DNA of 64,000 nt, counting the filler, from Asterionella formosa (taxonomy: Eukaryota), in the NCBI GenBank assembly GCA_002256025.1. It is 7 parts of 7 records of this genome, joined end to end, with 100 filler letters (N's around TTAATTAATTAA, not from the genome) between each part and the next. Parts side by side here need not be neighbours in the genome. Positions count along the whole stretch, not along the records: positions 9,262 to 18,422 come from NKIB01011028.1; 6 more parts are not named here. One strand, written 5' to 3'. Position numbers and translations under genes: made by a program. Shown one piece after another: positions 2,468-36,928 of the stretch (positions are counted from its first letter, which is position 1; each line of letters opens with the position of its first letter). A model generated the notes under the pieces. That model was not told the DNA's origin. It made no database searches and worked only from the letters and a program-made list of their open reading frames with translations.

Positions 2468-4089
2468 CCTGCCTTTTTCATGTATTCCCTAGGGTTCCGG
2501 GGTTTGTGGCTGATGAAAAGACAGGTCCCGTTGTACCTTACAGACGAATAATTCGGTACTAATTGTGTCCATTTATTTGGACCCGAGTGCAATTATTGGA
2601 CAGCTTTAATGTACTATAAAATTTAATTGACATTTTATGAGTAAATGAGCACAATTGTCCAGGCCCATTTGAAATTAAATGTAGACTCTATCATCATTTT
2701 TGCACCGCATAAATTGTAAAATATGCCAAAAGCATGAAAAACCACATTGATGATGGTGTACTCTGCACAGTAAGTTCGATGCAATTGATACATAATCTGA
2801 GCTTCTTCTTCTCATTCCTCATCCACGTAAATCATTGCTTTTCTTGCTACAATCAGTCAACAACCACTATGACGAGATGCTAGTGATACAGCAGCTACTT
2901 TTGTGATTCAAGTGGATGTGGCGGAATAATTGTTGATAATAGAAAGACGACCAGAAGGAGGCCATAGCAAGCAAGCAAGCAAGCATGGGAGTGATTTTAC
3001 ATCAAAATGCATCTGTTCTGCAATTTTCGCACCTGCTTCCACATCAGCATGCTCCTATTCTACCATTTTCTAAACTATCAATAGCACTAGCTAGTTATAC
3101 AATCCAAATATATTTCTGGTACCGGTTGCGTCCATATTATTATGTCAAAAGCATTTTCAGTTTACTTTGTTAATTCATAGAAATTATAGATGATTGCTGC
3201 AAATAATAATAGTGTTCTTTGATTGGACGGACAAAGTATATGGTTATTTTCCTCTAAAATTAATTATAGAAGTTGTCGAGTTAGATCATTCATATCATAG
3301 CTAGTATACAAAGATAGATTGTTTTATAGCCCATTTGTAATCCACTATTTCTAGGCAAGTATTTCATTGTTACCTGCCCACGAGACCTGTGCTTCCCTAC
3401 TTGTTATGTTAGTGCAGGTGAGTCCCCAACCACCTTTCAGGAATGGTGATTGTCTTAGCCGCAGTGTTAGGAGAAACTCCAACTGCCTAGGAAGGCGGCA
3501 CAAGCTGCTTGTAGGGAAGCAACCCACTATTTCTTGTACGCCAGGCAAGACCATGTGGGATTAAATTAGGTATGTATAGCCAAATTCACCATATTGGGCC
3601 ACCCAAATAATTAATTGGAGTCATATCATTCGACTATCATAGCTTTTTTTTGGCAAAAATGTGTACCGATAAATTTTTCTATTAGCGTGCTCCACAAAAC
3701 CCGAACAGTAAGTGGAGATACTAAGAGGTTAACCCTATATCTATATGGTAACAGGTACCGGTATATAATGAGTACATAAAAATTATACTTTGAATATCAT
3801 ACCATTGATGATTTCTTTCGCTATATATTATTATTACTACCGGGTTCTTTCCAGCTTGACAGGCAGATATCAGTCTCCCTTTGCGGCCCGATAAGAAGGC
3901 CTTAACATCTTCTTCCTTTAACTTTAAATACATCGTGAGATAGCACTTTTTCTCCTGAATAAAAGGGCTACACATGTTAAAGACAAAGAATTGAAATTTG
4001 AACCAGTAATATTTAGTCATGTGCCAGTCACAACATGAAAAATTCCATATACCCATATCAGTTTGGACTGGAAGGACTCAATAATGCTT

Positions 4090-9261: not shown

Positions 9262-9950
9262 ATGATTGGCAAGATAATGTCCGTTGTTGTCGATTGTTGT
9301 CGTCGATGTGCCTCCACTGCTCGAAAAATGGCAGTTTCGGCTTCAGACTCCATTGGAGAAACAATGTCCGACAAGGATAGTTTCTCCCAGCGATTGGTAC
9401 TGGCGGTACTGATTTGTCGCATTGTCGACAATGGTTGTTGCGGTTGTGCAGTGCCATTAATTCCCAAAAACGCCGCATCCACATTTTGATCAAAACTGAC
9501 CGATCTATTACTGACAGCTCGTGGTCTTGGGAGCAACTTCTTCAATGGCGGCGGGGGGATTTCCGTGTCCACGTCACTAACTTCGGTGAGCGCCGATAAG
9601 AAGGAGTAGTCGCCGATGGATTTCTGTTGTGCATTGTGGGAAGGTTTGGTGGCTGCGCGAGGAGGTTTATTTCCACTCCTTGGGATGGAAGGAACAATTT
9701 CAACCTGGCTGGTAGGTTCTGGTTTTACTGGGACTGACGGTGCATTGTTGTTGTTGTTGTCGTCGTCATTGTCGTCAGAGCTCGATGGCTCTGGTGTTGC
9801 GCTCAAAAGGTATTCTCCAACGAGAGAGCTAGAGCTCAAAGCTCTACCTTCGTCTTGAGATTGTGGTAGTGGTGAAGGTGTTGGTGGAGGGCCAATAAAT
9901 GGAAGAGGATAGCCACTTGTTGATGGTTCGTCCTTGTTTTCTTCCTCCAT
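9262..9950 (-). CDS. 5' part of a gene with a disordered Pro/Ser-rich N-terminus, truncated by the contig end (possibly an MscS-type channel N-terminus)
   Basis: Long open frame from ATG 9950 to the contig edge. The motif LSLSDIVSPMESEAETAIFRAVE recalls diatom MscS N-termini; that assignment is tentative. Confidence 0.6.
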
Positions 9951-11702
9951 GCTTGTGATGTTGGGGTTGCTTGGGGAAATGAAAATGTGGGTTTTGTACT
10001 TTCTTTGACGGAAATCGCACGCATATGAATACTACACGGTGAACGGCTTGCCCTCTCTTTTTTTAGTCTGCGTTGAATTGATGTGTTTTGTTACCGGCAA
10101 TGTATCATCAGGTAATGTATATATGCATAAATAATATCATCATATGTGTGAACATCACTACCTATACAAGGAACCAGCAAACAGAAATGTGCTTGCCGGA
10201 ATTTTTTTATTTATTCATTTATATATATGTGATTTAATTAAGAGTGTGTGGATGTGTTCATACAAGTAAAAATGAATATGCTTGCCCGTCATTTTAGTAT
10301 GCTGTGGAAAAATAAACGTGAGACTTCGTCGATCGCGAGGAGGCAGAAGTTAATTTCTGCCACGAGTCAGAGCAACCACAATATGGTAGACAGCCACGTC
10401 AGCAGGATAATGCTCTTCATGTGTACCGGTATCCAAGGATCAATCGTGGTTGATTTTATAGACTACGTGTCTGTTCTTGTGCATTTGTCTCGACATACTG
10501 GTGCCAGGTACTCCTACCAGCCAATTAAAATGTTAGTTTAAGCAAAATGACCCCAACTTCCTGGTACCAGGTACCAGCCAAAACAGGAGAGCTCTGCCCT
10601 TGCTTTGGATCGCGATATCGTATCACTTTGTCAAATTACATAATCACTAATGTACCGCTACCGTTGGTACATGGTTTTCACGGTGGGGTTACGGTGGTCT
10701 ACCGGTATCTCTATCATTAGTGGAGCAAATATAAGTGTTAGAATCCGGGTAAACTAGCGGTGTATAATGTGGTACTAGTACGTGACAACTTTTAATCGTT
10801 CAACAGTACATATGTACGAAGTACTCTCGGGACACGCTCGCCGAGTCACGTAAGAGCAGAGCAGTGTTGGTGACATGTCTGTGTTCGTATGCACGAACAT
10901 TCGTAGTGCGACATACCAGGTACCGTATGGCTGGAAGGTGCGGTAATTTCGCTCTCTGCGCGCTTCTTGGCTTTAGCCCACCTGCAGGGCTTCGAAACCA
11001 CAATGGACTGGCTGACTTCCTTGCCAGTATGAGAGAGAGTGGCTATCAGCTACCAGTACAAGGTGCCAAATTCTTTTGATATGTAGTAGAGGTACCGGTA
11101 AGTACCAGTACCTCCCGATAGTTCGCTCCCTAAAAAGGCCATTGGAAAAAGGTATTTTTAAATGGTCTTTTAACATTCACCAATCATACCGTATACAAAT
11201 TCATAAGAACGGTAGTCTACTGGTATTGGTACCTGGTACCGTACCAGAAAGTTTGTTGAGACAAGGCCCTATTAAAATAGCCTACCAGTACCTACCGGTA
11301 CCGATATTCAGGTATGATGATGTTCGATGGATGAGACAAGGCCTATTAAAATAGCCTTCTACGTATTCAAGGATGATGTACAACTGTCTACCGGTAGGTT
11401 GTTAGAATAAATGGTTACGACTACCGGCAGGTAGTCTAACGGTAGCCTTATTTAGCGACTGGAGGTGAAGTATTTTGATTAGGCCTGTTGAGATGGCCTT
11501 CGACTACCAGTTGCGTACTATATACGGTGGTCGTTCCAGTGGCCCCTCTCGTACCGGTCGCTTTACAATCATTTATGGCCTGTTTTCATATTTGGTAACA
11601 AGAGTATGGGTAAAGAATATTCTTATTACTCATTTTGTCTTGAACCACCCATTGCAAGATAAGGAGTACCAGATAAGAGAGAGAAAGACCTAGTAAGAAA
11701 CC

Positions 11703-12587
11703 ATGACGAAGCAAGCAGACGAAGAGTCTCAAATGATTGCATCGGAGTTAGATTTGGAAAAGGCACAATTTTGTGCCAGCAGAGAAATTCGTCAGGCCGT
11801 TCTTGAAGCCGACAATGACGGCAGCGCTGGACATGTTCATGCGCAAGCAGACCCTGCCTCGGCTCAGATTCTCTACCTAATGGGAGATGTGCACGAATAT
11901 GGAGTGTTGAAGGCTCGTCAGAACCACTTGTTGCTGTACGTCTTCCTAGTTCTGCTTTACATTGGACTCAACGTGGCTTTGTTGGGGGCCAACTTTCAGA
12001 GTCAAGAACTCATTGAGGAGGAGTACTACAACTCGTTCCATATGGCAGCCTTTTGGGGCGTATTCGGGTTTACCTTGCTGGAAGCATTCATTCTCATTGC
12101 TACTGACATTATCACGTGGGCAAACAGGTGTCAGACGCTGGTCATACTGTTCAATGTTATGGCAGCCTTTGCAACTGCCATGCTCTTTAGCTTTGAACCA
12201 CATTTGTATGAAGTACCTGCTCATTACATGGAGTATTCGATTCAAATACTCATTTCATGGGTCAATATTATCTTCTTACGCAGTTACATGATAAGGGCAG
12301 CAAACACTGGCCCTAACAGCATGTACCGATGCGGGAGCGTGGAAATGGCAGTTGCATTGGCAGTCTTGGGACTTGCCATGTTTACCCTTATTGTGTACAC
12401 GGGTGTTATACCTACTGACATGGGACCGGAACGTGCGGCACACTTTTGTGAATTTATCAATGAAATTTTCAATGGACTCTTTGCATTGGCCTATGCGACA
12501 TTTTGTTACAAGGATGCAAACAAGCAACTGGATCAACATTACAAGGGTATGAAGGCATTGCGACGTCATGAAGTGGATGTTTTGTAA
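11703..12587 (+). CDS. Uncharacterised multi-pass (6-7 TM) membrane protein, 294 aa
   Basis: Intact ORF with repeated hydrophobic segments carrying His/Glu (FHMAAFW, AHYMEY, AHFCEF). Confidence 0.8.
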   Translation: MTKQADEESQMIASELDLEKAQFCASREIRQAVLEADNDGSAGHVHAQADPASAQILYLMGDVHEYGVLKARQNHLLLYVFLVLLYIGLNVALLGANFQSQELIEEEYYNSFHMAAFWGVFGFTLLEAFILIATDIITWANRCQTLVILFNVMAAFATAMLFSFEPHLYEVPAHYMEYSIQILISWVNIIFLRSYMIRAANTGPNSMYRCGSVEMAVALAVLGLAMFTLIVYTGVIPTDMGPERAAHFCEFINEIFNGLFALAYATFCYKDANKQLDQHYKGMKALRRHEVDVL

Positions 12588-13074
12588 GTATGTGCATTGC
12601 TTCCTCTTTTGGTTTACGTTTCGTTCATTTATTTGCACACATTAAAGTGTGTTACTTTTACGTCATTGCTGTATAAATAATTATTATCATCATGACAATT
12701 ATTTTGGTGAAAGGATAAAAGCCGTTGTATTCGCATGCAACAGAGAAGAGAAACTACTTCTAATCCAATCTCCTAATGGCCTCTACATTGTTGTTATTCA
12801 GAGCCTATCAGTACGTAAAATAGTTATCAACCAGCGGTAGACTAACGAGCTGTACAGTCAAAGCAACGACTCCAGAAAAGGGAGTATGATGTCATGTGCA
12901 GATCTCCATATTGCAATCATCAGTATTACCGGGGTACATAGGAGTCAAGCTTCGAAGTACTGGATGTGTGGGTTATACCGGTATTAAGGTACCGGTAACC
13001 TTCTCGTTTATTGAAAGCAGTATGAGGGAAATAACTAGTTTCACATGTGATAATATAAATAGATGAAACAATCA

Positions 13075-13272
13075 TTAATATCCAGCCTTCTTATCCACAG
13101 GATTTAACAAGGGCTCTCGTCTCATGAATCTCGGTACATTTTTGCGAACAAAAAATTCAGTCGCTTCGTGCATAAAGGTGGCAGTTTGGTCCATATTGTG
13201 TGGACTCAACAAGACATTTTCCAACTCCCACAATTCACTGGATGCTGGTAATGGTTCGTTTGTAAACACATC
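13075..13272 (-). pseudogene. C-terminus of a D-isomer-specific 2-hydroxyacid dehydrogenase, cut by a Copia LTR
   Basis: DVFTNEPLPASSELWELENVLLSPHNMDQT...NPVDKKAGY is the DVF..EP / SPH signature. Homology stops exactly at the TGTTGG at 13273. Confidence 0.85.
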
Positions 13273-16200
13273 TGTTGGAGAAATTATTTTAGGAAAGAAA
13301 AATCCCGTTATGAAATACCTACTAAATGAATCAAAGAAGAATATGGTACCAGAGAAAACTCAGAATTCGAAAACAATCTACCAGTAAAACCAATAATTCA
13401 ACTAAAACTCTTAGGAATGATTACAATCAATTACTACAACATCGTTGTTCATATCTACAGCCTATTTGGTCCCTTGCGTGTCCTTACAGGAAACAAGAAA
13501 GAAATAGAGGGCTTCGGGACGCAATTTCAAATCAACAACAGGTGGACAGTTGAGAGTCCGGAGAAAAGATCTGAGGGTACCAGACCATCCAGAGTCTGAA
13601 GAAGTTGCATAAGCCACATTATGAGTGGCAAAGGAAAGTTTACCAAGAAGGCTCAGGCCAAGGGCAAGTTTCAAGCCAAGGAAGGGAGCAATAATGCTTC
13701 TTTTACCATCAAAAAGTCAGTTAATGACTTTAACTACTACCTTGGATCAGCAAAGCAGGCATCTGATTATGAGACTACTACTGAGTAACTCATCAACTAC
13801 ATCAAGAAAGTTTTTGACTATGGCAACAACATAGTAGGAACAGCGCTCAAGTTGTTAGAACCAATTAACACATTGGCATGAAAGCCAAGAATGCCAGTGA
13901 GCATTGCATCAGCAGAAGAAGATCACACTGCAGAGAATCGGCAATATGAGATTGAGTTTAAGGCTGATTATGACACCTACAGTGAAAGGGTACAGGCCTA
14001 CGAAAAAAATAACACCAAGGCATATGCTACGAAAAAATAACACCAAGGCATATGCGTTGCTCTGGGAAAGATGCCACAAGGCCATGAAGAACAAGATCCA
14101 AGCAAGATCCGATTACAACAGGATCGAAAAAACCCAATAACATTGCGTATGGTAATTAAAAAACATGCACTAAATTTTCAAGAGAATCAATTTTCAATGT
14201 CAATCATTTGAGATGCAATGAGAATGCTGTTACTTATAAAGCAAAAGGAAAGTGAAAGTCTACAAGACTACACCAAGAGATTTCATTTGGCACCATGAGA
14301 TGTGCTCAAGTCACACATGGGAGGACCCATTATCCTCACCAAGGTCATTGAAGCCATGGATGGATACAACAAGACCAACATCAAGCTATGAGATAAATTT
14401 CGTGAACAATCTTTCAGTCAGTTTCTGGCCTATTTATACCTCAATAATGCGGATAAAGCCAAAAATGGATCGATTATGACCAGGCTGAACACTGATCAAT
14501 CAATTGGCAATGATCAATACTCGAAGAGTATCACCAAATCACATAATGTTCTCAGTAACCATTGGTTTGACATAACAAATAAACCCAACAGTCACAAGAA
14601 ACCAGGTGACCGCAATAAAGACAGAGAACAAAAGGATGCAGTGAAGAAAGATGAAGATGTGAACTTATCATTTGCTCAATTAGAAGGAAAATGTTACTGC
14701 TGTAAAAGAGCGGGACCTAAGGCCCCTTCATGTCAAGATAGGAATAAACCCAAAGAAGAATGGGCAACCAACAAGGCCCAACAAAGCCATGCACAGGCAC
14801 AGGCTTTACATTGGACACGAATACAGTTACCTCTTTTAATTCCAGCAACCCACCGTCATCACAAGCTTCACAGCAAGCAAATGTCAAGCAAGTTGGATGG
14901 GCTGGAGCTCATATCAAACTACAATTTCACCAAGCATCTGAAATGCGTGACTGGATACTATTGGATAATCAATTAAGTGTCACTGGCTTTTGCAATCCAA
15001 AAATGGTTGAAAACATTCGAATGTCAAACGATGGAAGCATGCACCTGGCCACAACTGGTGGATCCATGGTCACTAATATGAAGGCTGATCTTCAACAATG
15101 AGGAAAAATATAGTTTAATGAGAAGGCAATCACCAACATCTTCAGTTATGCCGAAATGGCAGATAAGTACATGATCACCTATGACTCTGAAAAAGAAGAT
15201 GCATTTCTTGTTCATTTTCCTGACAAACCAGTTCTATTTTAATTGTTCATTTGCCTGACAAACCAGTTCGATTTGAAAGAATTGGGATGAATCTGTATGT
15301 TCCAAGCCTCCTACAACAATTAAGTCGGAGAACACTCAAATGTTAAATACATTTGAAGAAAATAAATCATTTTACACTGAACGTCAATTTGAGAGAGCCA
15401 AGCAAGCTCGTGATCTATTTCATGCCTTGGGTACACCACACCATCAATTAATGATTTCAAGGCAATAATTTGTATGAATACAATCAACAACAATCCAGTA
15501 ATTACCGACATCAGAACACTAAAAGGCAAGACAGCTCGTTGCAAGCCGCTGCCAGTTGTGAATGAATACATCGAGATTCCTAAAGAGCTTATCAACGCTC
15601 AACGCGAAGTGACTCTTTGCATGGATGGACTGAAAGTGAATGGACAATCATTTTTCACAACAATTTCTCGAAACATTATGTATAGGACAGCGCAATGGGT
15701 CAAGAATCAGACAGATGATGTCTATCGAGATGCTTTGACTCAGCAGGTATTCCGTGTTTATAATACTGGAGGATTTAAAATTACAACAATCCACTGTGAC
15801 AACGAGTTTCGACCTTTGATGGAAAAACCTTCCAATGAATATCAAGTCACCATGAATCACTCAAACCCAAAAGAACATGTTCCTGAAGCAGAACGAAATA
15901 ATCGAGTGATTAAAGAACGCGTGCCCGCAGCTTATCATCGATTACCTTTCAAACATTTGCCACGACTGATGATTAAGATTCTAGTCACAGAAACACAGAA
16001 ACTGAATTTCTTTCCGGCAAAAAAGGGGATCTCCCTGTATTACAGTCCTCGTATGATATTACATCAAAGAAACCTGGACTATGCTCAACATGGCCAGTAT
16101 AAATTTGGCACTCATGTCCAAGCACATGAAGAACATATGTTTTCAAACACCAATGCACCACGCAGCCTTGACATCAGAACACTAAAAGGTAATACAACTC

Positions 16201-18100
16201 GTCGCAAGCTGCTGCCAGTTGTGAACGACGCAATGGGTCAAGAATCAGACAGCTGATGTCTATCGAGATGCTTTGACTCAGGTATTCCGTGTTTATAATA
16301 CCGGAAGATTTAAAATTACAACAATTCACTGTGACAACGAGTTTCGATCTTTGATGGAACAACTTTCCAATGAATATCAAGTCACTATGAAACACTCAAA
16401 CCCACAAGAACATGTTCCTGAAGCAGAACGAAATAATCAAGTGATTAAAGAACGCGTGCGCGCAGCTTATCATCGATTACCTTTCAAACATTTACTACGA
16501 CTGATGATTAAGATTCTAGTCACAGAATCAGCAAAGAAACTGAATTTCTTTCCGGCAAAGAACAGGATCTCCCTGTATTACAGTCCTCGTATGATATTAC
16601 ATCAAAGAAACCTGGACTATGTTCAACATTGCCAATATTCATATGGCACTGTGTTGTCAAACACTAATGCACCACGCAGCCTAGATTGCATTTATCTACG
16701 CTACAATGACAACGTGAAAGGAGGTCATGAATTATTACACCAACCTACAAATTCATTGATCACTAGACGAACAGTTACTCCTCTACCACTTACCCCAGCA
16801 ATCATAAATCAAGTACACGCCCTTGCTGTCCAGGAAAATATGCCCGATGGTCTCAAGATATCAATTCGAATGGGATAACTATTTTATGATAGTGCTTGGA
16901 TTGCAGGAGTGGATTATGATAATGAAGCATTTGAAGATGTACAAGATGAAGATTATGAAGATCAACAAGCTAGTGAGGATGATGAAAGCAATAATGAAAT
17001 TCTCGGAGAAGACTATGATGAAATGACTCCGGATGAAATATATGAAGCAGAACAGCTTGAATTAAACAACAATACTCAAGAGGATGACCCTGAACCTGAG
17101 GGCGACAACGAAAATAATGTTGAATTGAATGCAGATGAAATACAAGATGAGGATGAAGAACCAGTAAATGAAACTGAAAATGAAGAGGCAAGAATGTTAG
17201 AAGTCAATCCAAGCAGCACTCAGGATGACACAGACCCAAATGTTAGAGCTACAAGGTCTGGAAGAGTCTCAAGACTACCATCAAAACTAACTATGGTCCA
17301 ACATCATTTGCATACCCAGGCACACTGCCAAGAAGAATTCACAAATGATAATGCGAAAGTGATCGCAATGACAATGTGTTTTCTGAATGAGATGTCTATC
17401 GATAAAGAAGCATATCACTTTGTTCAGTCATACTACAGCTTAAGAAAAGGCCTCAAGAAATTTGGCCAGAAAGGAAGGGGTGCTGCATGTAAGGAAATGA
17501 AACAACTGCATGATAGAGTTTTATTTGAACCAATTAGGATTCAAGACCTAACAGAGATCGAAAAGCCACATGCAATGGAAAGTCTAATTCTTTTGGTTGA
17601 AAAGAGAGACAAGAGTATTAAATACAGAGCTTGTGCCAATGGCAGATCGCAATGTGAATAGACTTATGAAAAATTTGTTGTTTATGAAGGGAACAACAAG
17701 GTCCTATATGTTAGGATGATCAAGGCATTATATGGCATGTTACAGTCATCATTGTTATATTACAAGAAATTTCGGAAGGATATTGAGTCAATTGGATTCA
17801 AGGTCAATCAATATGATCCATGCGTTGCAAATTGCATTGTAAATGGCAAACAGCACACAGCTACTTGGCACATGGACAATTTGAAATCTAGTGAACAATC
17901 AATTTTTGGAATGGCTCAAGAAGAAATACGCTTCTGACGAAATTGGTGAAGTCATGGTCATGCATGGAAAGAAGCATGATTATTTGGCAATGAGACTAGA
18001 TTACTCTCTTCCAGGAGTGTTGAGGGTGGATATGACTAAATATGTGAAATTTTCCAGAGAAACTTGAAAATGCCAATTAAATAGGAACTTAAAAATTGAT
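13273..18100 (+). mobile_element. Degenerate Ty1/Copia (CoDi-type) LTR retrotransposon; 5' LTR about 13273-13537, no 3' LTR
   Basis: LTR TGTTG...CAACA. Gag from 13621 (YYLGSAKQASDYETTT), Zn knuckle (CYCCKRAG..APSC), protease (WILLDNQ), integrase (IHCDNEF, EHVPEAERNNRVIKER) and RT (KALYGMLQSSLLYY, YDPCVAN). Integrase precedes RT, which is the Copia order. Confidence 0.9.
15507..16685 (+). repeat. Internal tandem duplication of the integrase region
   Basis: 15507-16169 and 16170-16685 are diverged copies with different deletions; both begin GACATCAGAACACTAAAAGG. Confidence 0.9.
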
Positions 18101-20269: not shown

Positions 20270-23200
20270 TTGAGGTTCCTGCACTTCAACCCAAAGGCAA
20301 AAATTAAAAGATTACTTAGGGTTGCCGAAATTCCCTAGAACTATGAACTTTGATGAAGTATTTTTAAACGACATGATGCCATTTGAAATATTCAAATCAT
20401 TGCAAATTTGCGCATACGTGCATAGATTCCTTTTCGAATTCGGTAATTATATAGATATGGATTGTACATCTCTATATATATATCGGTATACACTACTCTA
20501 TATACCGATCGACAGTTTATGTGTCATACGACCTGGCGGATCTGCAAATATTTGAAGTGCACTCTAGGAGTGGTACGCGTGTGTCAAATGATGATCATCT
20601 ACCGGCACCCGTAGTGGATAGGGTAACAGGTACCAGGCGGGGTACCGGCGATCACCCAAGAAATTTTTAAATGTGTATCCAGTGTAGCCGGTTTGGGTTT
20701 GCAAGACCTTGCAAACAGGGCCAATCAAACATCGGAATGTAATTGAAGTTGACCAATCAAAATAATTTATTTTGAAGCTGGCACGTGCTATGGAGTCTTT
20801 TGTACAGGTGATTTTACAACTAAATATTTTAGCACAAGACTACCATTCCGATGATGACGTTTTGGCGATTAGTGATTCTGATTCCGACATTTTGGAGACC
20901 GTTGAGAAGGCCGATTTTGTCGAATTTTTACGGGAAGATAGCTCAACGTTGGCTGGGTTTGAAGAAGACTTACCGGTAGGGTTGCGGCCCCTGCTTAACC
21001 TAGTAAGGAGAAAATATCGCTAGGGTTGTAAAAACGGCGTGGAACAGGGAGTTTTCTACTATGACTTCTCATGATTCGAGTGTCCATTTGAATATTTGAA
21101 TTAAATAGGAATCGGGGCCAGATTGATAGAGTTCCATTAAAAAAAATGATATTTAAACGTTAATAATTTGTCTACGTTGCTGTATGTAGACATAATATTG
21201 CTCAACGCCAAAACACACATATAAATAAGGAGTATGCCAACATGTATGCTCATGGCTCTTGTTTATACGTTGATAATGAATCTACATTGCTGTTTGTAGT
21301 TTCAATATCACTCAACACACAAGGTATATTCCGGTTTGTAAATCAGTACCAGGTACCGGAGTCCCAGAGTAACGGTATTTCGGTACCCTGGTACTCGGAG
21401 CACCAGGTACCAGTAGCACACAATATTGGTTCATCATAATGGAGGACAGGATGTACTACCGGTAGTACTGGTACTGATTTTACAAACCAGGATTCAGTCC
21501 ATCTAATACTTGTGGTTCAAGTGTGGCTGGCGAGATACTTCAGCGAATCTGAAGCAGGTGAATATTCTCAATTCAACCAATCAGAATATGTGTAGTGACG
21601 CGGGAACTTACCCTGGAGTCTTTTCGGAATGAGAATTATTCAGCGAAACATACCTACGCAAGACTCCAAGTATACAAGAACGTTTTTGCATGTACAAATT
21701 CTGATTCCAATATTTTGGCGACTGTTGAAAAAGCTGATCGGGTCGACTTTTTGGAGGAGGATTGCTCTACATCTACGGGGTTTCATGAAGAATGAAATAG
21801 ATAGCCGTGTACCCTATAACGTCAGGAGTTAACTTCTGCAGAGAAGTGGCAGTTATCCCTCATAGATTTTTTTAAAAGCTTGATGGCCACCTTTTTTGAG
21901 TATTTTTTGGATAGTTACGATTCCAAGAGAGATAACTGCCACTTCTCTCCAGAAATGACGTCCTTCCCATATCTGTATATAGATCATACCCCTAAATCGA
22001 CCCATGACTGTATCTAAGCATATGCAAAGTGGTCGTATTGGTGAAAGCTAATTTTACCTTTCAACAATTTTATTTCGTTGCTCGTACAGTGTGGATTGAA
22101 GTACATAATAAAATTATTTTGCAAAAAACAGACCTTGTGATGTGTAACTGCGGGGCCGCAACCTTTATGTTGCTGTGTTTGAACCCCTAGCTCGAGGTAG
22201 GGTTTATAAAATAATATTGAGTCAGACTAATCAAACACATACTCTCCACATATAAATCAAATGTGTATAACGCTCAATGGAGCTTTCACCAATACACACC
22301 CTTTCCATATGCTTACACACAATCATAAAGGATCTGGTCAGAAACTCCTGTTTAGAAAGGAACTTCGGTTTTGTAAACTATGCTAAAAAGGCTCTAAAAT
22401 TCGGGGGAAATCTGTTTATTTGGCATAGTAAAAAAACCGAAGTTCCTTTCTACAGTTTCTTGCCAGAAGTTATATACTGATGCTCTTTGAAAGTTACCTA
22501 TGTACTATCTAAATCGCCGTCAGACCCAGCCAACGTTTAGCTATTGTCGTCCAAAAACTCGACAAAATTGGCCTTTTCTAAGGTCGCCAAAATATCGGAA
22601 TCAGAGTTATTAAGTGCTTAAATGTCATCATCGGAATAGTAGTATTGAGCCGGAATTTTTGGTCCTAAAATCTCCTATCCAAAAAATTCCATTGCAAGTG
22701 CCCGCTTCCGCATATTTAATATGATTTACTTTTTGCGTACCACTCTTTGAGTGCACTTTCAAATATTTGCCGAGCCTCCTGGTTGTATGCATGACACATA
22801 GTCATCGATCGGAGTATAGATTGTAGTACTGTTGTATGCACATGAAGCGATGTAGAATCTAAATATATCTATACTATATATAAATATAATAAACGATTTG
22901 AATATGTGGAACGGATTCAATGCATAGCATATAAAATCGTCAATTGGAGTATTAAGTGTCCATGCATAGACATGCAGCGACTAAGAGTGTCTTCTTGCAA
23001 TTACGCATTGCTGCTCCTGCTGATGCTTCGGTGGTGAAGAAAGGGCATCGTCTTCAGGCTCTTCGTAATTGAGAACAGAGAACGATGAGCTGCTATCGAG
23101 GGACAGGAAGAAAGAAAATGCCGCCATGGTGCGTGCGTTACATCAAGGATCAGCCAACTGACAAAATATGTGAACTATTTTTTTAAAAATGTATTGAAAT

Positions 23201-23450
23201 ACCGTAAACCTCTTAAAAGGTTCCTGCATTTGAACCCCTAGGCAAAAATTAAAATATTGCTTAGGGTTGCCGAAATTCCCTGGAACTAAGAACTTTTATG
23301 CGCTAATTTTGAATATCGATGATTCCGTTTGAAATATTTAAATAGGTGGAAATTTGAGTGTGCGTACATATTGCCCGCAGTTACACATCACGAGGTCTGT
23401 TATTTTCCAAAATAATTTTATTATGTACTTCAATCCACACAGCTTGTACA
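20270..23450. mobile_element. Nest of non-autonomous DNA-transposon (MITE-like) copies in direct and inverted orientation
   Basis: 20275-20370 is a direct copy of 23219-23310. 20500-20580 and 20850-20965 are inverted copies of 22735-22820 and 22515-22640. 21700-21790 is a third copy. 22085-22152 is an inverted copy of 23375-23445. Terminal-like GGTTGCGGCCCC at 20980 with its complement at 22152-22163. Confidence 0.65.
21824..21964. repeat. Inverted repeat with about 37-bp arms
   Basis: CTGCAGAGAAGTGGCAGTTATCCCT versus AGAGATAACTGCCACTTCTCTCCAG. Confidence 0.8.
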
Positions 23451-23889
23451 ACTCAACGACAAGTTTGCGCAGGTGCTAGAACTGTATGATGACAAAATGA
23501 AAATTCTATGATGAGAAAGAAGAGCAAGAGGAATGCCGGAATAGCTTCATTCCGCTTGATGGAGGATATTCAAGGCCAGGAGTAGATTCGATTGTAGCAG
23601 TCCTCAATAACGATGTAGAAATGCATTCTATACTATTTTTTATAATATTATGTAGAACAGTAAATAGACTCCAGAGTCATTTCCTTTAGCATTTATAGTG
23701 ATTCATGTCAACTGTAGTTCTACTAGCTTCAACACGAAAAATCAAATCGTAAATTACGACTTAAGCTGTTTAACATTAACGCTATTGAATTGCTTCTACA
23801 AATCAATAATATAACAATAGAGCATGCTTAAACAGACTATAAAGTTATATTTCTAGTCACATGCTACACTTTTTGAATAAAATAGAGTC

Positions 23890-25081
23890 ATCAACCGCTT
23901 GCAATGTAACCAACCGCATTCCAAGTGTTCAAAATTGTTGATTGTGACACCCTCAGCCAAGCTGTCCAAACCCACTGAGCGACATCCTACCGCTTCACCT
24001 TTGTACCATGAGGATGGGCGACCATCCAGTCCTCATAGGCATTCCTAACAAAACCCTTAAAGGGCTTGTTTACTCCAACGTCCAAAACTTGAAGTTTTGA
24101 TGTGTAGCCACCACAAATGAAGTCCACAGCAGTGCCACAATCCTTAGTTGCATTGAGGCTTGTCGCCATCAAATGCACCTGGAACTCGTCCATCAGGAGG
24201 TAGCTTGGTTGAGAATCATGGCTGATTGTCCATGGTTTCCAGACTTCCCGAATTCAAAGCGCAAACACCGACTCATCGACCCACGCCTTTGCCTGACAAC
24301 AATAAACCATCTGTGGGGGATAAGCAAACTGTTGATTGTTGAATTCTCGCTGGATCCCGGCATCAGGTACTCCTTTGAAAACAACAAGAGGAGCAAGCTT
24401 CTCTCCAGACATGGTAACACCCAACAACACTGTGCAACGCATGCTACCATTGGTTCGTAAACTGATGGTTTTCACACCTTTATCAGCTAGCGTGAGCCCG
24501 CCTGCCATATCGAAATAAATGTTTGTCTCATCTATATTTACGATACTAGCACAATGATACAACCCTTCAAGAAACTGTGCGTTTACCGGTATGTACTGGA
24601 GATACTCCTGCATGACACTCAGCACATAGCGCGTGTTTTGTGCCTTGTGGGTGATACAACGATACACAATGTTTTGGGATGTGCACCAACGAGCTACACG
24701 CTGTTGAATAACGCTCAAGCTAGCAACATGTCCCGACAAGCCCTTCAGCTCAGCAGCAAGCAACATGATCGAACAAGCGCGATCATCACCACGAAGCTGA
24801 TCATACAAGAGACGAATCGCCGCAAATTCAGTTGCACTATTGCTACGCGACTTGCCTAAATGAAAAGTTTGTTTTTTCAGAAGGAGACGCCCCTCATCCG
24901 ACAATAAACCTTCTACATCCTCAGAATAACGATTGTCGAAATCATGAAAGTTAGCTTTCCAGTGCCGAATATTGCTGTCGCCAATGCCATACTTACGTGC
25001 AACAGCCTTGATGATGCCGGGGAGTTCCCATGCTTCATCCACGATGTCGCGCTTTTCTTGCAAGGTGAAGAACTTTCTCAT
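23890..25081 (-). mobile_element. pogo-family (Tc1/mariner superfamily, DDE_1) transposase, frameshifted
   Basis: N-terminal HTH (FTLQEKRDIV...VARKYGI), NIDETNIYFDM, GEKLAPLVVFKG, QAKAWVDE, MDEFQVH and GGYTSKLQVLDVGVNKPFK; internal frameshift and stop. Confidence 0.88.
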
Positions 25082-25672
25082 TTTTCACTTTTCGGAAACA
25101 GTGATCATATTAATAAATATTAGAAAAATGCGCGCCATCCTGTAGAACTAATAAAATTAACTTTGGTTGCTCGAAACATCATCTTCAATTTTCATTGATG
25201 TTGCATATTACAATCATTCTCGTGTGTTTTACGCTTGTTGTACCATCTCTATGCATATTTCCGTCATTCTGGTTGTCATGCTAAAATCGGCAATTTTATT
25301 GCCGAAAAGTTCGATGTGCCCCATATTGCCCTTAAATAAAAATTACTTAAGAAATTACTTAGAGCCTAAAAATTACTTAGAAATACCCGAATGGCAAGAC
25401 GATAGCTGGAGCGGGAATTGCCAGTATACGGGTCGGTGAAAGTATACTGCAGTATTGAATAATCATACTGCTCCAGACGCAAGATCAGTATTCCAGTATA
25501 CTGTCATTCTATATTCCAAATACCACACTGTTCTAAAATTTTGCCAATGCGTATACTGGTCTTTCAGGAATCTTACAGAAAATCCGGCATGTCTTTTAAC
25601 GCATTGGAAGCGTGCTTACTATGATGTAGGCTAGCAACACCAGAAACAAAAAAAAAACGGTAGCTATGTAGT

Positions 25673-28442: not shown

Positions 28443-29507
28443 CTAATATCCCTGGATAAATAGTGTCGCAACCCCGAGATAGAAAGCAGCCTGCGTAAAG
28501 AAGTTAAACTCTGTCGTAGTATTCACGAATGAAGGCACAAGCACGAGTTCTCCGTCAACGCCTTGTAAAGCACCGGTTCCACCAGAGATAGCTAAAGTTC
28601 CACCCGTCAAGTCGATAACCTCTCCAGCTGCATTGAAAGTGACCTGGTTCGATGCTTCATCTACAATGGTGTAGGAGAGGTGGCAATATCCTTTTCCCGA
28701 TACAGCATCTACCGCCGTAATGCCGACTGGTCCTTGAAGGCGAATGCAGTATCCGATCACGGAGGCACCTAGTAATGAACTGGCGTTCACCGTAAGTAGA
28801 CCCGAGTTGTATATCCAGGTAGTACCAATTGGATCAATTGCAGAAGGGAGAGAGAGAGCCGGGTTGGAAGCGTTGGGTGGTAACATAAAAAATGAAAGTT
28901 CTAGGGCTGTGATATTTCTCTTTCCAGTGCCAGTTCCATTTCCTGTACCAGGGCAGCACTCGCATTTGCAAAGTGGCTCTTCGTAGGGGAAACTCATGCT
29001 GTATTCGTAGGATAAACTTGCGTTGTCCTCGTAGAAGAGACTCTTGCTGACTTTGTGGGAGGGACTCTTGCTGACTTTGAGGGAGGGACTCTTGCTGACT
29101 TTGAGGGAGGGACTCTTGCTGACTTTGAGGGAGGGACTCTTGCTGTCTTTGGGGGAGGGACTCTTGCGGACTTTGTCGGAGGGACTCTTGCGGACTTTGT
29201 GGGAGAGACTCATGCTGTACTCATAGGGGGTAAGCGTGCTGTATTCGTAGGAGAGGCTCAAGCTGTACTCATAGGGGGGAAGCGTGCTGTACTCATAGGA
29301 GAGACTCAAGCTGTACTCATAGGAGAGACTGCTTCTGGTTTCAAGGACGGGGCTCTGGATGTCTTCCTTGGCGATGAAACTCTTGCTGTCTTCGTAGATG
29401 ACTTCTTCTTTCACGAGAGCTGTACCTTTCGGTAGACGTCGCCGAGTGTTGGCAGCCAAGGCACATTGGGTTACTACAAATAGTAGTAAGAATAGAAGTC
29501 GAGCCAT
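28443..29507 (-). CDS. Secreted silaffin/cingulin-like repeat protein with a C-terminal dirigent/allene-oxide-cyclase-like domain
   Basis: Signal peptide MARLLFLLLFVVTQCALA, RRL (RXL) site, YEYS repeats, seven KxxKSPS repeats, CKCECC linker, and a beta-rich domain with LAISGGTGALQGVDG. Confidence 0.8.
   Translation of the reverse strand: MARLLFLLLFVVTQCALAANTRRRLPKGTALVKEEVIYEDSKSFIAKEDIQSPVLETRSSLSYEYSLSLSYEYSTLPPYEYSLSLSYEYSTLTPYEYSMSLSHKVRKSPSDKVRKSPSPKDSKSPSLKVSKSPSLKVSKSPSLKVSKSPSHKVSKSLFYEDNASLSYEYSMSFPYEEPLCKCECCPGTGNGTGTGKRNITALELSFFMLPPNASNPALSLPSAIDPIGTTWIYNSGLLTVNASSLLGASVIGYCIRLQGPVGITAVDAVSGKGYCHLSYTIVDEASNQVTFNAAGEVIDLTGGTLAISGGTGALQGVDGELVLVPSFVNTTTEFNFFTQAAFYLGVATLFIQGY
28975..29400. 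repeat. Coding 24-bp minisatellite
   Basis: Units such as GAGGGACTCTTGCTGACTTTGAGG and GAGAGACTCAAGCTGTACTCATAG. Confidence 0.9.
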
Positions 29508-29989
29508 TATGTTTGCTGGGCGACTATGATGTGTGAGAGAAGCTCTTTGTTGTGAGCGATATCTTCACATCGCTCAGCTAGTAGTATGTACGTATCGGAT
29601 AGCAAATGTCATACAAAGAATGCTGCATTCAAAATGCCAAGAACAATTCTTTGAACGAGTCAACGAACAAATAATGTACTAATTGACGAGAATTTAAATT
29701 CCCGAGCGACATCCTCATATAATAACGGTAATATGATAAAGGCTGGATTCGTCAATAGTCAGCAGGGGTTACCGGGTACCGGTAGGTTTACCCGAGGTAC
29801 ATGGTACCTGGTACCCCTGGTACCGTAGTCCGAGGAAGAAGAGATGGTATGTAATTTTCTACCTGAAAATATGATATTCTTTTATACACAAATGAAACAC
29901 TTGATTAAAAATTTGAACTCTCTTTTTACCAGTAGCCAACAAGCATAAAGTAAAGTGCCGGTATAAAGGGTTCGAGTTTAAATAAAGAC

Positions 29990-31075
29990 TACTAAAGTAC
30001 TAAGCACAGACCAGCACAGCAGTATTGAAGCTAAGATGACCTCCGGGTCCCGACAGTCAATTTCCAACCAAAACCACGAGTTCACCATGACGAAAGGCAC
30101 AACAAGCACAGTCAATAAAGCGGCACAAGAAAGAATTAGCAATGTGGGATAGGTCAATACAATAGTTTTGACGTCTGACAGAAACATGATGCAGAAAGCG
30201 AACGTGAAAACGCAGATAAAGCTACTACATACTGGAGTGATGCACAGCAACTACAATTGCCAATGAACTCGATTTAGCATTCAACAAGTCTACAAAAATG
30301 TGCGACTTTATGGAAAAGAGCGCCATTGCTTACAGAACAGGAAGATGAACAAGAATACAAGAATGAAGGTGAGCCATCAGAGGAAGAAACAGAAGGCCAA
30401 GCAAGCGATATGGAAGAAGAAGTAGACGAAGATGGAGAGATTCCAACAAAGTATGAAACAACACAAGACCAGGGGGTACCCAAGAAGGGGAAAGGCGAAG
30501 CGATCATCAAGCATTCCGAGAAAACTCCAAAAGCAATAGCATCAAAGCAACTAAAAGCAACTAGAAACCAGCAACGAACAGACTAAAGTAGCAGAGGCAG
30601 AACAAAAAGATGCATTTACCCCACTTCCATCACCTACATGCAAAAGCAACTCCCCTCCAGATGCCGCAAGCAATCCACAGACTATTAAGAAATCCTGAAA
30701 GCTTCAATGGGAAAAAAATACGATTCCTAAAAAGGGCCAATTATAAATTTAAAGAATCAAAGAAGAAATTCGCTGACAAGAGCCAACAATCACTTCACAC
30801 ATATTACAACACAAAAATCACAAACACTACAATGGCACCAACACCAGAAGTGAGGACAACTAGGAAGGAACCAATAAAATCCACCCTTCCCATCCAAATC
30901 TCAAGCCGACATGAACAGTGCAGCTATGTTGAAACTGCTTAGAGAACAACGCTACCAAAAAAATATTAACCCTACTTCCATATGAGAGATTGACCACCAC
31001 AAAATTCCACAACCCCACCTTTATGGGCCATGGAATGCAAAGACCATTGGCTGACAGCATCCTACAAAAAATGGA
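29990..31075 (+). pseudogene. Decayed A-rich coding remnant, possibly from a non-LTR retrotransposon
   Basis: Strong A skew, an acidic low-complexity ORF fragment and broken frames; no diagnostic motif. Confidence 0.25.
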
Positions 31076-32016
31076 AATTCCAGTTTTAAGGGGAAGAAAT
31101 TCTCATACATTAAGTGTAGTAGCTAGATCTAGCGTCTATTAATATAGTTTCTACTGTTGTTTAGCACATAAGCTGTTCCTAGACCAGCTAGCAACAATGA
31201 CATCTTAATTAGCTATCATCCTGGATGAGATTTGTTCTTGTAAACAAATGCAAGCAATTGATTCGAAGGTTCAGCTATCAAAACAAGGGGCAAGAAAGAA
31301 TTCTAAATTAGTCGACTATCAGATAGAGTTGTGAAACTAAAAGAAATCGCTGTTCTAAACAAAAAAGCTACACGACGTCCTCGTATGCGACATAAGGGAT
31401 CAAAAATCCTATCCTAACGGCAAGTGCTCCATCATGTCGAAATGGCTTTATATAGCCACGAGTACATAGGTACGGTAGGTGAGGTCAAATCTAGCGAAAT
31501 AATTAGTATATTCTATACACATATTCCTACATGAATATACTTCATGATTACACCAGCTTTTGCCGCATCAAAATCGTGCTAATAGATTTTATTTATATAT
31601 GAATGTGAAGAAAATTTATTTATACCGGCACAACTAACTAAATATACACAGAGCAAAGCTGAAAGATTTAGTACCGGGGGCATATGTCGCATAAATAAAT
31701 TTTTCTTTAACCGATAAGTACCGGTAATTGTCTGTTGTCTATAAAGTAAGTGTACCTGGTCATTTTATGGTCATGTTCGCGGATTTGTTGTACGCTTGAT
31801 GGTTTTGGCCGCCTTGTTTTTCGTATGACCCGTCATAACAAGATCGCTCTGCCACTTGTTGAGTAGTTTGTAAAGCAAGCTGAAGCCATACATGAACAAC
31901 CATTCATTTGATACCATTTATTCTTGTTGCAAGCTACTAAGCAAATCGGAACAAGGCTTGTTTGCATTAGATCTGAGGGGCCTTGTTCCTTTGTTTCTAC
32001 AAAGATACAAACTGAC

Positions 32017-33186
32017 ATGCCACGACGGATAGAAATTCTGCCACGACACTTGGCTATGTCACCAGTACTGGTAATAATGCTAATATCACCAGTTGGATCA
32101 TCGGCAAGTACCAGTGGTAGTAGAACTAGTCATGTGCAACGGCGAGATGATGGCACTCGCGCCCAAAGTCTTGATACCCGAACAGATCGATCCACTTTTC
32201 TTATATTCGACGTTCAGAAGGCTCATGAGGAGCAAGCAGGTGAGAAATCAATCGTGGTGTGATTTGATAGGTATTTTCAAGTGAATGTACCTCTCTATAT
32301 ATTTATAGCGAGATAGATATTGACCATTGATCGCATACACGCCCATGATTCAGATTCCAACGTGGAGACTCCCAACGATCTTCGTCTCGAGTCTCGATTG
32401 GATCGTCCTTTTCGCAAGGAACATCCTGATCGAGTTTATAATAACAGAACGAGGCCAATAGGTTCGATACCAAACATGCATCAAGGTGGGAATGGCGTCG
32501 ACCCTACCACACAACAACCCAAAATGGATTATCCCAATGAGATATCACCCTTTCAGCTGCTCTTGACGGCACATGATGAAGTCGCTTGGGATCACATGTT
32601 GCTCATGAACGTTACCAAAAGTCACCTCGAGTGTAGTCTGCAACAAGATGATGAGGCATTTGACCGACTAGAAATGTTCCAACTACTGCACGATCCTGTC
32701 GAAACACTAGGTCTGACGATGGTAGCCATTTCTGGTACTGCACATTATGCCAGAGATGGCAGAGATGGTGCCCATATTGCCGATACAGCTATGCTAGCTT
32801 TTCTAGGCACGAATGCGTCTAGATATCTATTATCTCTGCAACGGGCTAGTATTAGTGTCGATCAAGCTCAACTATTCACGCTTGATGGAAGAATGGTCGA
32901 CTTTAGAAACGGAAATATGATGATCCCTTCCGATGCTGTCACCCAGGTAGACAGTGTCAGAATGACTGATGCCATGTCGTTGACTGTCATTGCAGTGGCG
33001 ATTGGTGTCCCATTGGTTCTGTTTCTCATGATTTGTTTTGGTTATGCTCACCTTTATTGCCAGGGGTACACTTTCTGCGGAAGAAGAAATGTAGACCCTG
33101 AGGGTGATGTGTGGAGGGCAGAATCTCATGCGCCATTCACTCATGTTCAGGAGATTGACGACAAGGAATGTGACAAGAGTTTGTGA
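32017..33186 (+). CDS. Probable type I membrane protein (signal-like N-terminus, C-terminal TM, short tail); likely one intron near 32240-32316
   Basis: Hydrophobic PVLVIMLISPVGSSA; GTGAG donor at 32240; 288-aa open frame ending in TM VIAVAIGVPLVLFLMICFGY. I could not reconcile the splice phase by eye. Confidence 0.6.
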
Positions 33187-35456: not shown

Positions 35457-35905
35457 GGTGGACAGGACTGGACCGGAGGCTGAGCAGCACACCTGAGCCT
35501 ACTCTATTACCGGTAGAGCACTTTGGTATGATTGAAGTGATATGGAATCGATCATCAAAATTGCTGTCCTCCTGCTTGCTTGAGTTTATTACCCATGCTG
35601 TATTTACCAGTAGACTCCCAGCCTCCTCCTGACTTTGCTGTAAATGATTAATTTAGCCATACCGGTACTTAGAACATGAAATAATCCAATTGGTAGTATC
35701 ATTCACGTACAGAGTTAATTTAGTATGTATTTTGCAACATAAAATTTTTAAACTGACTCTGCCTATGTATGTCGTACAGTACAGTATACCGGTACATGAT
35801 ACCCCCTGGTACCAGGTACCGATCTGGCTACCTGGTACCTGGTACTCTGTACCTGTTACCCACACTGAAGCCCCATCCACCCCACTTCGTCAACATCATT
35901 GTGTG

Positions 35906-36928
35906 TGTTGAGAGGGAGAAACGCTTGCAACGGATGCCAGCGGCAGCTACATTAACAAGGAACTGAGATTCTAAAGTAGTATTTAACTAGCTGTAGAGGG
36001 ACCAGTACTCACGGGAATTAAGCACTTACAGGAATCTTGGTAGGATATACGGAGTAACCGGTATATGGTACCAACACCCCCCTCAAGTGAGAAAATTCCC
36101 ATGAGACGGGACAATAATATTGCGGAGGCGGAGAAAATGGGCATCATCTTTATGTTCTTTGGTGAACAGATCAGCAACATTGGTATCCCCTGGGAGGTGG
36201 GTGACAAAGATTTCGGAAAAACGGTGAGCGTCGCGCACAGCCATGTTGCGGATATTAATATGCCGCATCTTTTTGTTAGCACAGTTGTGGGACCAGTCCA
36301 CAGCACCTCGGTTGTCATTCCAAAGAGGGGTGGGGAGAGTTACATCAGGCATGTGGAGGTCACTAAGGATATGGCGGATGAATTGGGTAACCTTGGTGCC
36401 CTCATCTGCAGATTTGATTTCAGATTCGCAGGTACTGCGGCTCACACGAGGTTCACGAATGACATGCCAGGCAATGGGGCCACCTGTACGTGTACTGATG
36501 GAACCAAGAAGGGAGCAACACTCGGCAAGAGAGATGATGTCGGTGGGGTTGGGTTTGGAAGCATCTTGGGGGCCCCAGTTGGCATCGGTGTAAGTGGTGA
36601 GAGTGGGAGTGTCCTTGGGCCAGCCAAAGGTGGTGGAGAGGTATGAGGAAGCAAATTGCGAGGTAAAGGCAATGCCATGATCGGCAGAGCCAGCCAGGTA
36701 TCGTAACACATACTTGGCACCTAAAAGGTGAGCAGGGGTGGCATAGGAGTTGTGCTGAGCCAGGAGAGTGAGGGCCACAGAGACATCAGGACGTGTGCTG
36801 ACAGCCAGCCAATTGAGAGCCCCAATGAGTGACTGGTATTGTGTAATAATGGCCGCGCGAGCTTTGGGGGAAAGTTCAGCACCATCAGGCACAATGCGGT
36901 CATAGACCAGGCCAGAGCGATAAGGGGT
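35906..36928 (-). mobile_element. Ty1/Copia retrotransposon 3' end (intact RT/RNase H frame, PPT, 171-bp LTR 35906-36076)
   Basis: YQSLIGALNWLAVSTRPD, YTDANWGPQD, SRSTCESEI, WNDNRGAV and NVADLFTKE; GAGGGGGG PPT then TGTTG...CAACA. Confidence 0.92.

Follow-up and report, generated by a model that had tools for sequence, protein, structure and literature searches.

Fields of TA-bounded CCGG words in intergenic DNA of Asterionella formosa: candidate excision footprints of a TA-targeting transposon

RESULTS

A field of short TA-bounded words between two reading frames

We analysed a 64-kb stretch of DNA from the diatom Asterionella formosa (assembly GCA_002256025.1), hereafter the window, which consists of seven pieces of about 9.15 kb each, joined by runs of N plus a TTAATTAATTAA spacer. 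The window is eukaryotic nuclear DNA and is rich in transposons, with fragments of a copia reverse transcriptase and of PIF, piggyBac, Plavaka-like and pogo-like transposases. Among its host genes are one for PP2A subunit A, one with a transglutaminase core (peptide N-glycanase-like), and one for a GCN5-type acetyltransferase that carries a bromodomain. The same DNA is represented in contigs of metagenome runs labelled freshwater or 'algae', which belong to 13 studies. The subject of this report is a family of short words bounded by TA dinucleotides, built around the palindromic 8-mer TACCGGTA (TA-CCGG-TA), and in particular the field of such words at 10420-11560. This flagged field occupies single-copy intergenic DNA between a minus-strand open reading frame (ORF) at 9262-9950 and a plus-strand ORF at 11703-12587. 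It holds 15 of the 67 family instances found in the window, five of them TACCGGTA itself.

TACCGGTA is the most over-represented 8-mer in the window. It occurs 26 times, against 0.26, 0.45 and 1.3 expected under first-, second- and third-order Markov backgrounds, respectively; in 100 shuffles that preserved dinucleotides, the word averaged 0.29 copies and did not exceed 2. The enrichment is 58- to 100-fold. Among the 16 palindromic words of the form TA-NN-N'N'-TA, TACCGGTA alone is enriched; TACATGTA, for example, was observed 3 times with 1.3-2.3 expected. With one base added at the centre, TACC-N1-GGTA was found 14 times against 0.38 expected, and 12 of these 14 have A or T at that position (TACCWGGTA, expected 0.3-0.5; TACCAGGTA 4, TACCTGGTA 8). 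The two CpG-transition forms, TACCAGTA (10) and TACTGGTA (7), reach 17 against 1.3-2.4. When all TA-X-TA words with X of 1-7 bases were considered, the three most significant X were CCGG, CCWGG and CCAG/CTGG. The shorter pair TACCGTA (9) and TACGGTA (1) is modestly enriched, at 10 against 2.6-4.3, and GGTACC occurs 39 times. Spacings of 2 and 3 between half-sites in the same orientation are also enriched. Two features of the spectrum are unexplained: CCWGG units, unlike CCGG units, nearly always stand between GG-TA and TA-CC, and GGTAACAGGTACC is present three times. The over-representation of the motif words is confirmed: every example listed in the initial annotation of this DNA is present at its position, and the excess over a Markov background is very large within the 64 kb.

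A second, weaker TA-bounded excess runs through the whole window. It comprises TACTA/TAGTA, with 157 occurrences against 91-114 expected, and TACTACTA/TAGTAGTA, with 9 against 1.0-1.6.

The family is widespread in the window and avoids coding sequence. The counts per piece, in order, are 2, 18, 7, 17, 16, 6 and 1; TACCGGTA lies on six of the seven pieces, and piece 7 contributes a single TACCAGTA. ORFs of at least 120 amino acids hold only 6 of the 67 instances yet cover 43% of the window (binomial P = 1e-9), and the sole instance in homology-supported coding sequence, at 24584, is in a transposase remnant. Under the grammar TA-C(1-4)W?G(1-4)-TA we counted 79 units, about one per kb, with unit lengths of 5 to 9. 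Successive units are at most 30 bp apart in 32 of 78 cases, and 23 of the 79 units belong to 10 chains in which neighbours share a TA. The initial annotation had placed such motifs on at least six contigs, described them as rare in intact coding sequences and as chained through shared TA dinucleotides, and on each of these points the counts agree with it.

Motif units inserted at a TA

For one TACCGGTA, the ancestral state can be read from homologous proteins. The site, at 24584-24591, lies within the decayed frame of a pogo-like transposase remnant (DDE_1, Tc1/mariner superfamily) on the minus strand at 23987-25081, in which DDE_1 and HTH_Tnp_1 domains are recognised across the frames 24254-25081 and 23987-24253. 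On the coding strand the sequence is tac ata ccg gta aac (Y I P V N), and the protein reads YI[PV]NAQF. The two residues PV are absent from 12 of 12 homologues that cover the site (YLQYI--NAQF or equivalent), and from 9 of 9 covering members of the closest cluster, 8 of which are new, making 20 homologues in all. Moreover, two frameshifted homologues have PVH--KRTVS where the other frame of the window copy has PVHTGKRTVS. At the nucleotide level, ...ACA TA AAC... has become ...ACA TA CCGG TA AAC..., so that a previously single TA is now doubled. Polarised by these outside sequences, the alignments show that the word at 24584 originated when 6 bp, CCGGTA, were inserted at a TA already present in the ancestor. 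Because the window copy is only 3-4% diverged from its family, the insertion is recent; because its host is a dead transposon gene, selection for a regulatory site is not expected there.

The remnant places a transposase of the Tc1/mariner/pogo superfamily in this organism. Its best match, P0001, is 96% identical, and identity to the family as a whole is 96-97%. The copy is broken between 24253 and 24254 and lacks one residue (G-SMRC). With a threshold of 90% identity, the family has 88 members; of 15 that we aligned, most are 97-100% identical, and four short fragments are 82-94% identical. The contigs that carry members are 2.3-2.5 kb long, pointing to a unit of about that length. The family is young and abundant, and represents a candidate class of TA-targeting donor. 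Among the 15 aligned members there were no further PV, TG or YR insertions; one SF insertion and two single-residue duplications were seen. Upstream of the pogo-like frame, by 340-480 bp, three or four copies of CCAGTATAC and GTATACTGG are found at 25419-25562; these may be transposase-binding repeats of the element.

A second comparison comes from a tandem duplicate whose copies are about 80% identical. One copy reads GCGTA|CACACACTG (39798-39811) and the other GAGTA-CCGGTA-CCCGGTA-TGTGCACTG, giving TA-CCGG-TA-CCCGG-TA at 40055-40069. The difference is 13 bp and consists of two motif units at a TA and nothing else. Its direction is unpolarised, and it may be an insertion or, alternatively, a deletion in the other copy. 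The four bases that follow, at 40070-40073, are the reverse complement of their paralogous counterparts at 39803-39806 (CACA against TGTG), which suggests a complex repair event. In both comparable cases of the core motif, then, whole motif units stand at a TA, as the initial annotation anticipated in proposing insertion over substitution. By sequence comparison, the core word is shown to be a TA-duplicating insertion wherever this can be judged (two cases); some weaker variants arose otherwise. The paralogue pairs 20190/23135 and 61800/62148 were uninformative on motif origin. In a further pair, 20430/22680, an insert of about 150 bp begins with motif words and is not built of them.

The variants of TACCGGTA carry information on what happens to the word afterwards. 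Its CpG-transition forms TACCAGTA and TACTGGTA stand at 13 times expectation, and the other eleven classes of single-base variant number 0-6 each. This excess points to neutral decay of a mutationally supplied source word, and is a poor fit with purifying selection. CCAG and CTGG had been put forward as footprint combinations in their own right; the words are indeed enriched, and CpG transition of CCGG explains them equally well and is a simpler source for them than CCA...TGG tips.

The fields in other sequencing runs

Contigs from four public runs (X1, X3, X6 and X7), belonging to four studies, were aligned over piece 2. They cover the flagged field, so the fields are not an assembly artefact; the motifs are thus present in independent sequencing data. 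Three X1 contigs (10593-10799, 11121-11368 and 11400-11535) match the window without a difference, and X1 may be the source sample. In the other runs, field contigs over 10249-11700 vary in length relative to the window: X3 differs by +8 and +6, X6 by -28, and X7 shows 39 gap letters. In contrast, four of the contigs listed over the flanking genes have 0-2 gap letters. Rows of indels and base differences were restricted to the best supported, nearly all of them outside the flagged field and chiefly in the copia region; of the indel rows, one is at 13049 and the rest are in the copia region. A metagenome contig (L001, 1-1180), compared with window 11644-12845, encodes an orthologue of ORF 11703-12587 with 90% protein identity. 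Where the two align, nucleotide identity is about 92% as estimated by eye, and 52 bp of window sequence that follow the stop codon are missing from the contig. This contig, the sole match when metagenome contigs were scanned with ORF 11703-12584, extends 78 bases upstream and covers no motif field.

Apart from 10486-10791, the flagged field is at single-copy depth, whereas the copia region alongside is 50-200x deeper. Within the former interval, a 36-bp piece of a very high-copy repeat (10524-10559) is wedged between the motif words TACCAGCCA and CCTGGTACCAGGTACC. Its depth is 169080, compared with roughly 3000-4000 in the neighbouring X1 bins, and its ends are loose on either side. Repair of a break may have captured it as filler DNA.

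Other motif fields and their surroundings

Downstream of the flagged field, a small field at 12927-12997 comprises TACCGGGG and two TACCGGTA. It lies 340-410 bp past the stop codon of ORF 11703-12587 and is therefore not in a promoter; an X7 contig over 12879-13262 has 0 gap letters.

In each of the four runs, the copia-like element alongside, at 13240-18100, reaches 50-200x single-copy depth. Part of it is duplicated internally (15691-16171 against 16229-16685, 88% identity), and many internal deletion joints are seen in the other runs.

The field at 21329-21494, described by reading the sequence itself, lies inside a long imperfect palindrome, whose central TA holds a 123-bp insert (21349-21471) that starts with CCAGGTAC and ends with GTACTGG, with TA on either side, and the flanks of the insert, AAATCAG-TA and TA-CTGATTT, are inverted copies of one another. 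Another field, at 29770-29827, is located 263-320 bp upstream of the start codon (ATG) of a minus-strand ORF at 28443-29507 and includes two chains, TA-CCGGG-TA-CCGG-TA and TA-CCTGG-TA-CCCCTGG-TA-CCG-TA.

The product of that ORF is a secreted-looking protein without a Pfam match. Tandem 24-bp repeats encode its KSPS-x-KVS units, after which comes a C-terminal domain that contains cysteine. We take this lysine- and serine-rich repeat protein to resemble the silaffins, silica-associated proteins of diatoms.

A field at 35508-35860 (including TA-CAG-TA-CAG-TA-TA-CCGG-TA ... TA-CCTGG-TA-CCTGG-TA) shows period 7 with 8.3 copies and 70% matches. It adjoins a copia fragment and lies directly upstream of the PP2A-A gene, whose first in-frame Met is about 50 bp away by hand count. 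The field at 37308-37747 has the longest chain, TA-CCGG-TA-CCAGGG-TA-CTGG-TA-CCG-TA, and a short period-7 run, GGTACCTGGTACCTGG, occupies 38186-38234. At 48409-48442 only CpG-decayed forms are found (TACTGGTA once, TACCAGTA twice), and intact CCGG is absent. Finally, 51433-51451 reads TA-CCTGG-TA-CCCAG-TA.

Self-comparison of the window placed motif words at the edges of dispersed repeat copies at 20600-20978. A TACCGGTA at 20971 sits exactly at the junction of two repeat families, and the two copies of the second family (20973 and 58558) both begin with CCGGTA. This raises the question of whether the words could be remnants or copies of a small non-autonomous element (a miniature inverted-repeat transposable element) or of a long terminal repeat that bears them. 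The CCGGTA start of that family is in keeping with such an origin, as are TA-flanked inverted ends made of motif words at 11095-11298 (13 of 16 bases matching) and at 21349-21471, and the position of fields beside copia fragments at 35508-36070 and 50840-51451. However, a sensitive self-comparison found no homology from one field to another, and the sequence past TA|CCGG or TA|CCWG differs at every site, with no shared extension. Single-copy depth in the flagged field also speaks against it, and the core motif is absent from copia interiors. The fields are single-copy and have no sequence in common beyond the words, and hence are not copies of a repeat; for the fields examined, a repeat-family origin is ruled out, and as a general account of the words it is very improbable. 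The intervals 21349-21471 and 11095-11298 could themselves be small mobile elements or nested scars.

Turning to the chains, one could suppose that the fields are decaying micro- or minisatellites of a palindromic unit GGTACC(W), born and grown by slippage or template switching, a transposon playing no part. Tandem Repeats Finder detects runs of period 7 at 10563, 29796, 35805 and 38218; GGTACCWGGTACC, a 13-mer palindrome, is found at 6 loci; the enriched same-orientation spacings of 2 and 3 would suit such a process; and one pair of paralogues preserves the palindrome through symmetric changes (GATATC against GGTACC). Nevertheless, most chains (56 of 66) consist of one unit, and the contexts of these are unrelated. 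The longest clean runs are 2-3 units, with none above about three, the motif fields do not form head-to-tail arrays of constant period, and the count of GGTACCGGTACC is zero. Slippage can extend a field and cannot found isolated units, and the insertion at 24584 had no local template. We regard a satellite origin as improbable for the family. The TA-sharing chains are real, and slippage could also make them.

Elsewhere in the window, 29 ATC units at 1753-1839 encode a poly-aspartate tract in a minus-strand frame that adjoins a PIF-type transposase fragment.

Tips of the putative donor

We modelled each word as TA, a prefix of the left tip, a suffix of the right tip and TA. Of the 64 possible tip triplets, CCA...TGG ranked first (72 against 19.4 expected), and CCT, CCC and CCG came close behind, which indicates that CC plus GG carries most of the signal. 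The initial annotation had suggested CCA...TGG-like ends; that triplet is the best of the 64, whereas any CCN end gives most of its signal and the three-base products are not enriched (TACCATA/TATGGTA, 7 against 7.6-11.7; TACCATGGTA, 0). Retention of two bases per tip therefore fits best. Within the grammar the outer TACC...GGTA is fixed and the centre varies: 26 words have no spacer, 12 have W, 2 have S, and 10 have lost one base. Fixed outer parts with a variable centre look like junctional diversity from the joining of two fixed ends.

Other sources were considered and rejected. A 1.4-kb element at 22075-23459, which sits in a nest of repeat fragments (20273-23459), has long inverted ends (38 nucleotides at 97% complementarity, and more beyond) and a start of the form ...GTACAGTGTGGATTGAAG; as a donor it does not fit, since it starts with CAGTGTGG. 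Fragments of piggyBac and PIF elements are present in the window, but their target duplications, TTAA and TWA, do not match the words. Palindromic additions from hairpin opening, of the hAT or RAG type, were rejected because CCGG is not templated by the flank at 24584.

DISCUSSION

We think it somewhat probable that the motif words are excision scars left by a cut-and-paste element that targets TA, belongs to the Tc1/mariner/pogo superfamily and has CC...GG tips, and that these scars subsequently decayed at CpG and were perhaps also multiplied by slippage. On this model, the element would insert and duplicate a target TA. Excision would cut a few bases inside each tip, and end joining would leave TA + CC + GG + TA, which is TACCGGTA. 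Variation at the joint would account for the related words: an added A or T would give CCWGG, an added C or G would give CCSGG, and a lost base would give CCG. The extra central A/T might be a single untemplated addition, which is a guess; it is otherwise unexplained. CpG transitions would subsequently convert CCGG to CCAG or CTGG, and scars would accumulate in tolerant sequence, which means non-coding DNA and above all the long intergenic regions. Chains might form by re-insertion into the TA of a scar, or by slippage between short repeats. We infer the transposon as the maker of the words, the sequence of its tips, the depth of the cut inside the tip, and self-seeding.

Several observations weigh against this model. 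All counts come from 64 kb of one genome. The footprint interpretation put forward initially is partly supported, and draws strength from the two TA-duplicating insertions, one of them polarised. As to a donor, the 64 kb yielded no element that combines TA|CC...GG|TA ends with a convincing inverted repeat, and a scan of the same DNA for TA-flanked inverted ends starting with CC or CT returned only arms made of the motif words. Local alignment of the flanks of the pogo-like copy gave a 13-base match and a weak gapped alignment only, with termini that are unreadable, hemmed in by other elements. A search with P0001 found no copy of the family in the viral and genome contig collections. Single-end footprint products are common in known systems; here TACCTA/TAGGTA (26 against 18-25) is not enriched, and nor are the products of a three-base cut given above. 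The orientation bias of TACCGTA over its reverse complement (9 to 1, two-sided P = 0.02) is unexplained. Clustering and TA sharing require an extra assumption, and the 6 loci of GGTACCWGGTACC, which hold CCWGG units, look as much like a tandem or palindromic unit as like independent events. Some variants also have other histories: in the tandem duplicate described above, GGTACCGTA, compared with its paralogue GATATCTGTA, looks like the outcome of substitutions and a small indel, and the TACCAGTA at 13379 was created by a 5-bp deletion relative to the consensus of 48 high-copy-element contigs. Finally, the same 8-mer has been found independently as a promoter motif in oomycetes.

The oomycete literature leads to the strongest rival. 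TACCGGTA is motif M94 of Phytophthora infestans (PMC3597505), and ATACCGGTAT and GTACCGGTA have been reported for Plasmopara and Phytophthora (PMC10031896). A related word, M93 or motif-1 (TACATGTA), has 4150 occurrences in P. infestans promoters, and these motifs were read as binding sites of dimeric factors and linked to expression (PMC3597505, PMC3520976, PMC10031896). The Asterionella words might likewise be sites for a dimeric transcription factor, the same one that would recognise TACCGGTA in oomycetes, with half-sites TACC and GGTA at spacing 0 or 1, multiplied in promoters by selection. The perfect palindrome, the constant half-sites with those two spacings, and the identity of the recognition word with M94 are all as expected for such a site. 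The largest fields, moreover, lie between divergent ORFs or just upstream of one (9950-11703, 29507-32317, 35508-35860 and 46717-49111).

Nonetheless, we consider this reading unlikely as the source of the words. They are not confined to upstream positions: as far as the few genes in the window allow, instances lie 3' of genes (12976, 12990, 27850, 28161 and 50840), between convergent genes (8457), and in a transposase gene, where the word at 24584 arose by insertion within an already decayed frame. The GCN5 gene and the glycanase-like gene have no motif upstream. A 58- to 100-fold excess of the exact 8-mer is far above the levels seen for factor sites, the product of CpG decay likewise shows a 13-fold excess, and chained units share TA dinucleotides. 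An oomycete binding-array paper assigns no factor to the motif, as far as a term search of its text shows, which found none of the motif's sub-strings (PMC11267843). The factor and scar readings are not exclusive, and scars may later have been co-opted for regulation.

Among known excision scars, those of Tc1 and Tc3 of Caenorhabditis elegans are the closest in form. These elements are cut two bases inside the element and leave TA, two bases from each tip and TA, an 8-bp palindrome that adds 6 bp at the original TA. Their tips are CA...TG, unlike the CC...GG proposed here, and TACATGTA itself is unenriched in the window. Furthermore, Tc1 footprints in the worm are rare single-locus events and not a major intergenic component as here; PMC3520976, citing Eide and Anderson 1988, names taCATGta as a Tc1 footprint that is seldom left. 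According to a Sleeping Beauty paper, a Tc1/mariner footprint consists of 2-4 bases from the beginning or the end of the element, retained between TAs, with TACAGTA/TACTGTA as the canonical Sleeping Beauty form (PMC6943129). The window has 4 TACAGTA and 0 TACTGTA. Sleeping Beauty resembles our proposal in that terminal transposon bases are kept between the TAs and end joining yields variants of the joint, with outcomes that vary by cell type. It differs in that its scars are 7 bp long and derive from overhangs of three bases, whose pairing leaves a single mismatch in the centre; the main scar here is 8 bp, and CCWGG would need five-base overhangs or one added base. On an evolutionary scale, excision footprints of Stowaway are reported for the Triticeae (PMC1925063). 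As described in the excerpted text of that paper, these are likewise natural footprints of TA-targeting elements in non-coding DNA, traced on a phylogeny at single loci, in contrast to the dense fields of one word seen here. Literature searches on the 8-mer, on mariner and diatom excision footprints, and on footprint over-representation returned no description of dense footprint fields.

These comparisons bear on the oomycete motifs in turn. M94 and M93 share with the words described here the TA + 4-bp palindrome + TA build and intergenic abundance, there in another group of stramenopiles, and M94 is the same 8-mer. For TACATGTA in Phytophthora, an origin as a Tc1 footprint was weighed and set aside on grounds of abundance and conservation; in the accessible text there is no mention of an indel test of that origin (PMC3520976). 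On the present data, abundance does not count against an origin as scars. In a bolder and, we think, rather unlikely extension of the model, a resident transposon with CC...GG tips would repeatedly target the TA of its own scars, writing GGTACC, TACCGGTA and TACCWGGTA arrays into promoters as raw material for factor binding. Oomycete TACATGTA and TACCGGTA would be scars of the same kind, from CA...TG and CC...GG tips, and much of the regulatory DNA of stramenopiles would have been written, in a sequence-specific way, by excision.

Known excision footprints are infrequent scars at single loci; in this window a scar-like family dominates the non-coding k-mer spectrum. If the scar reading is true, the abundant palindromic 'promoter motifs' of oomycetes have a concrete alternative origin, and motif discovery by over-representation alone may pick up mutational scars. 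Excision would then be a sequence-specific mutational force on intergenic DNA, creating palindromes, new CpGs, new TA targets and length polymorphism in promoters. Confirmed genome-wide, excision footprints would be a dominant, sequence-specific component of intergenic DNA, a new form of a known phenomenon.

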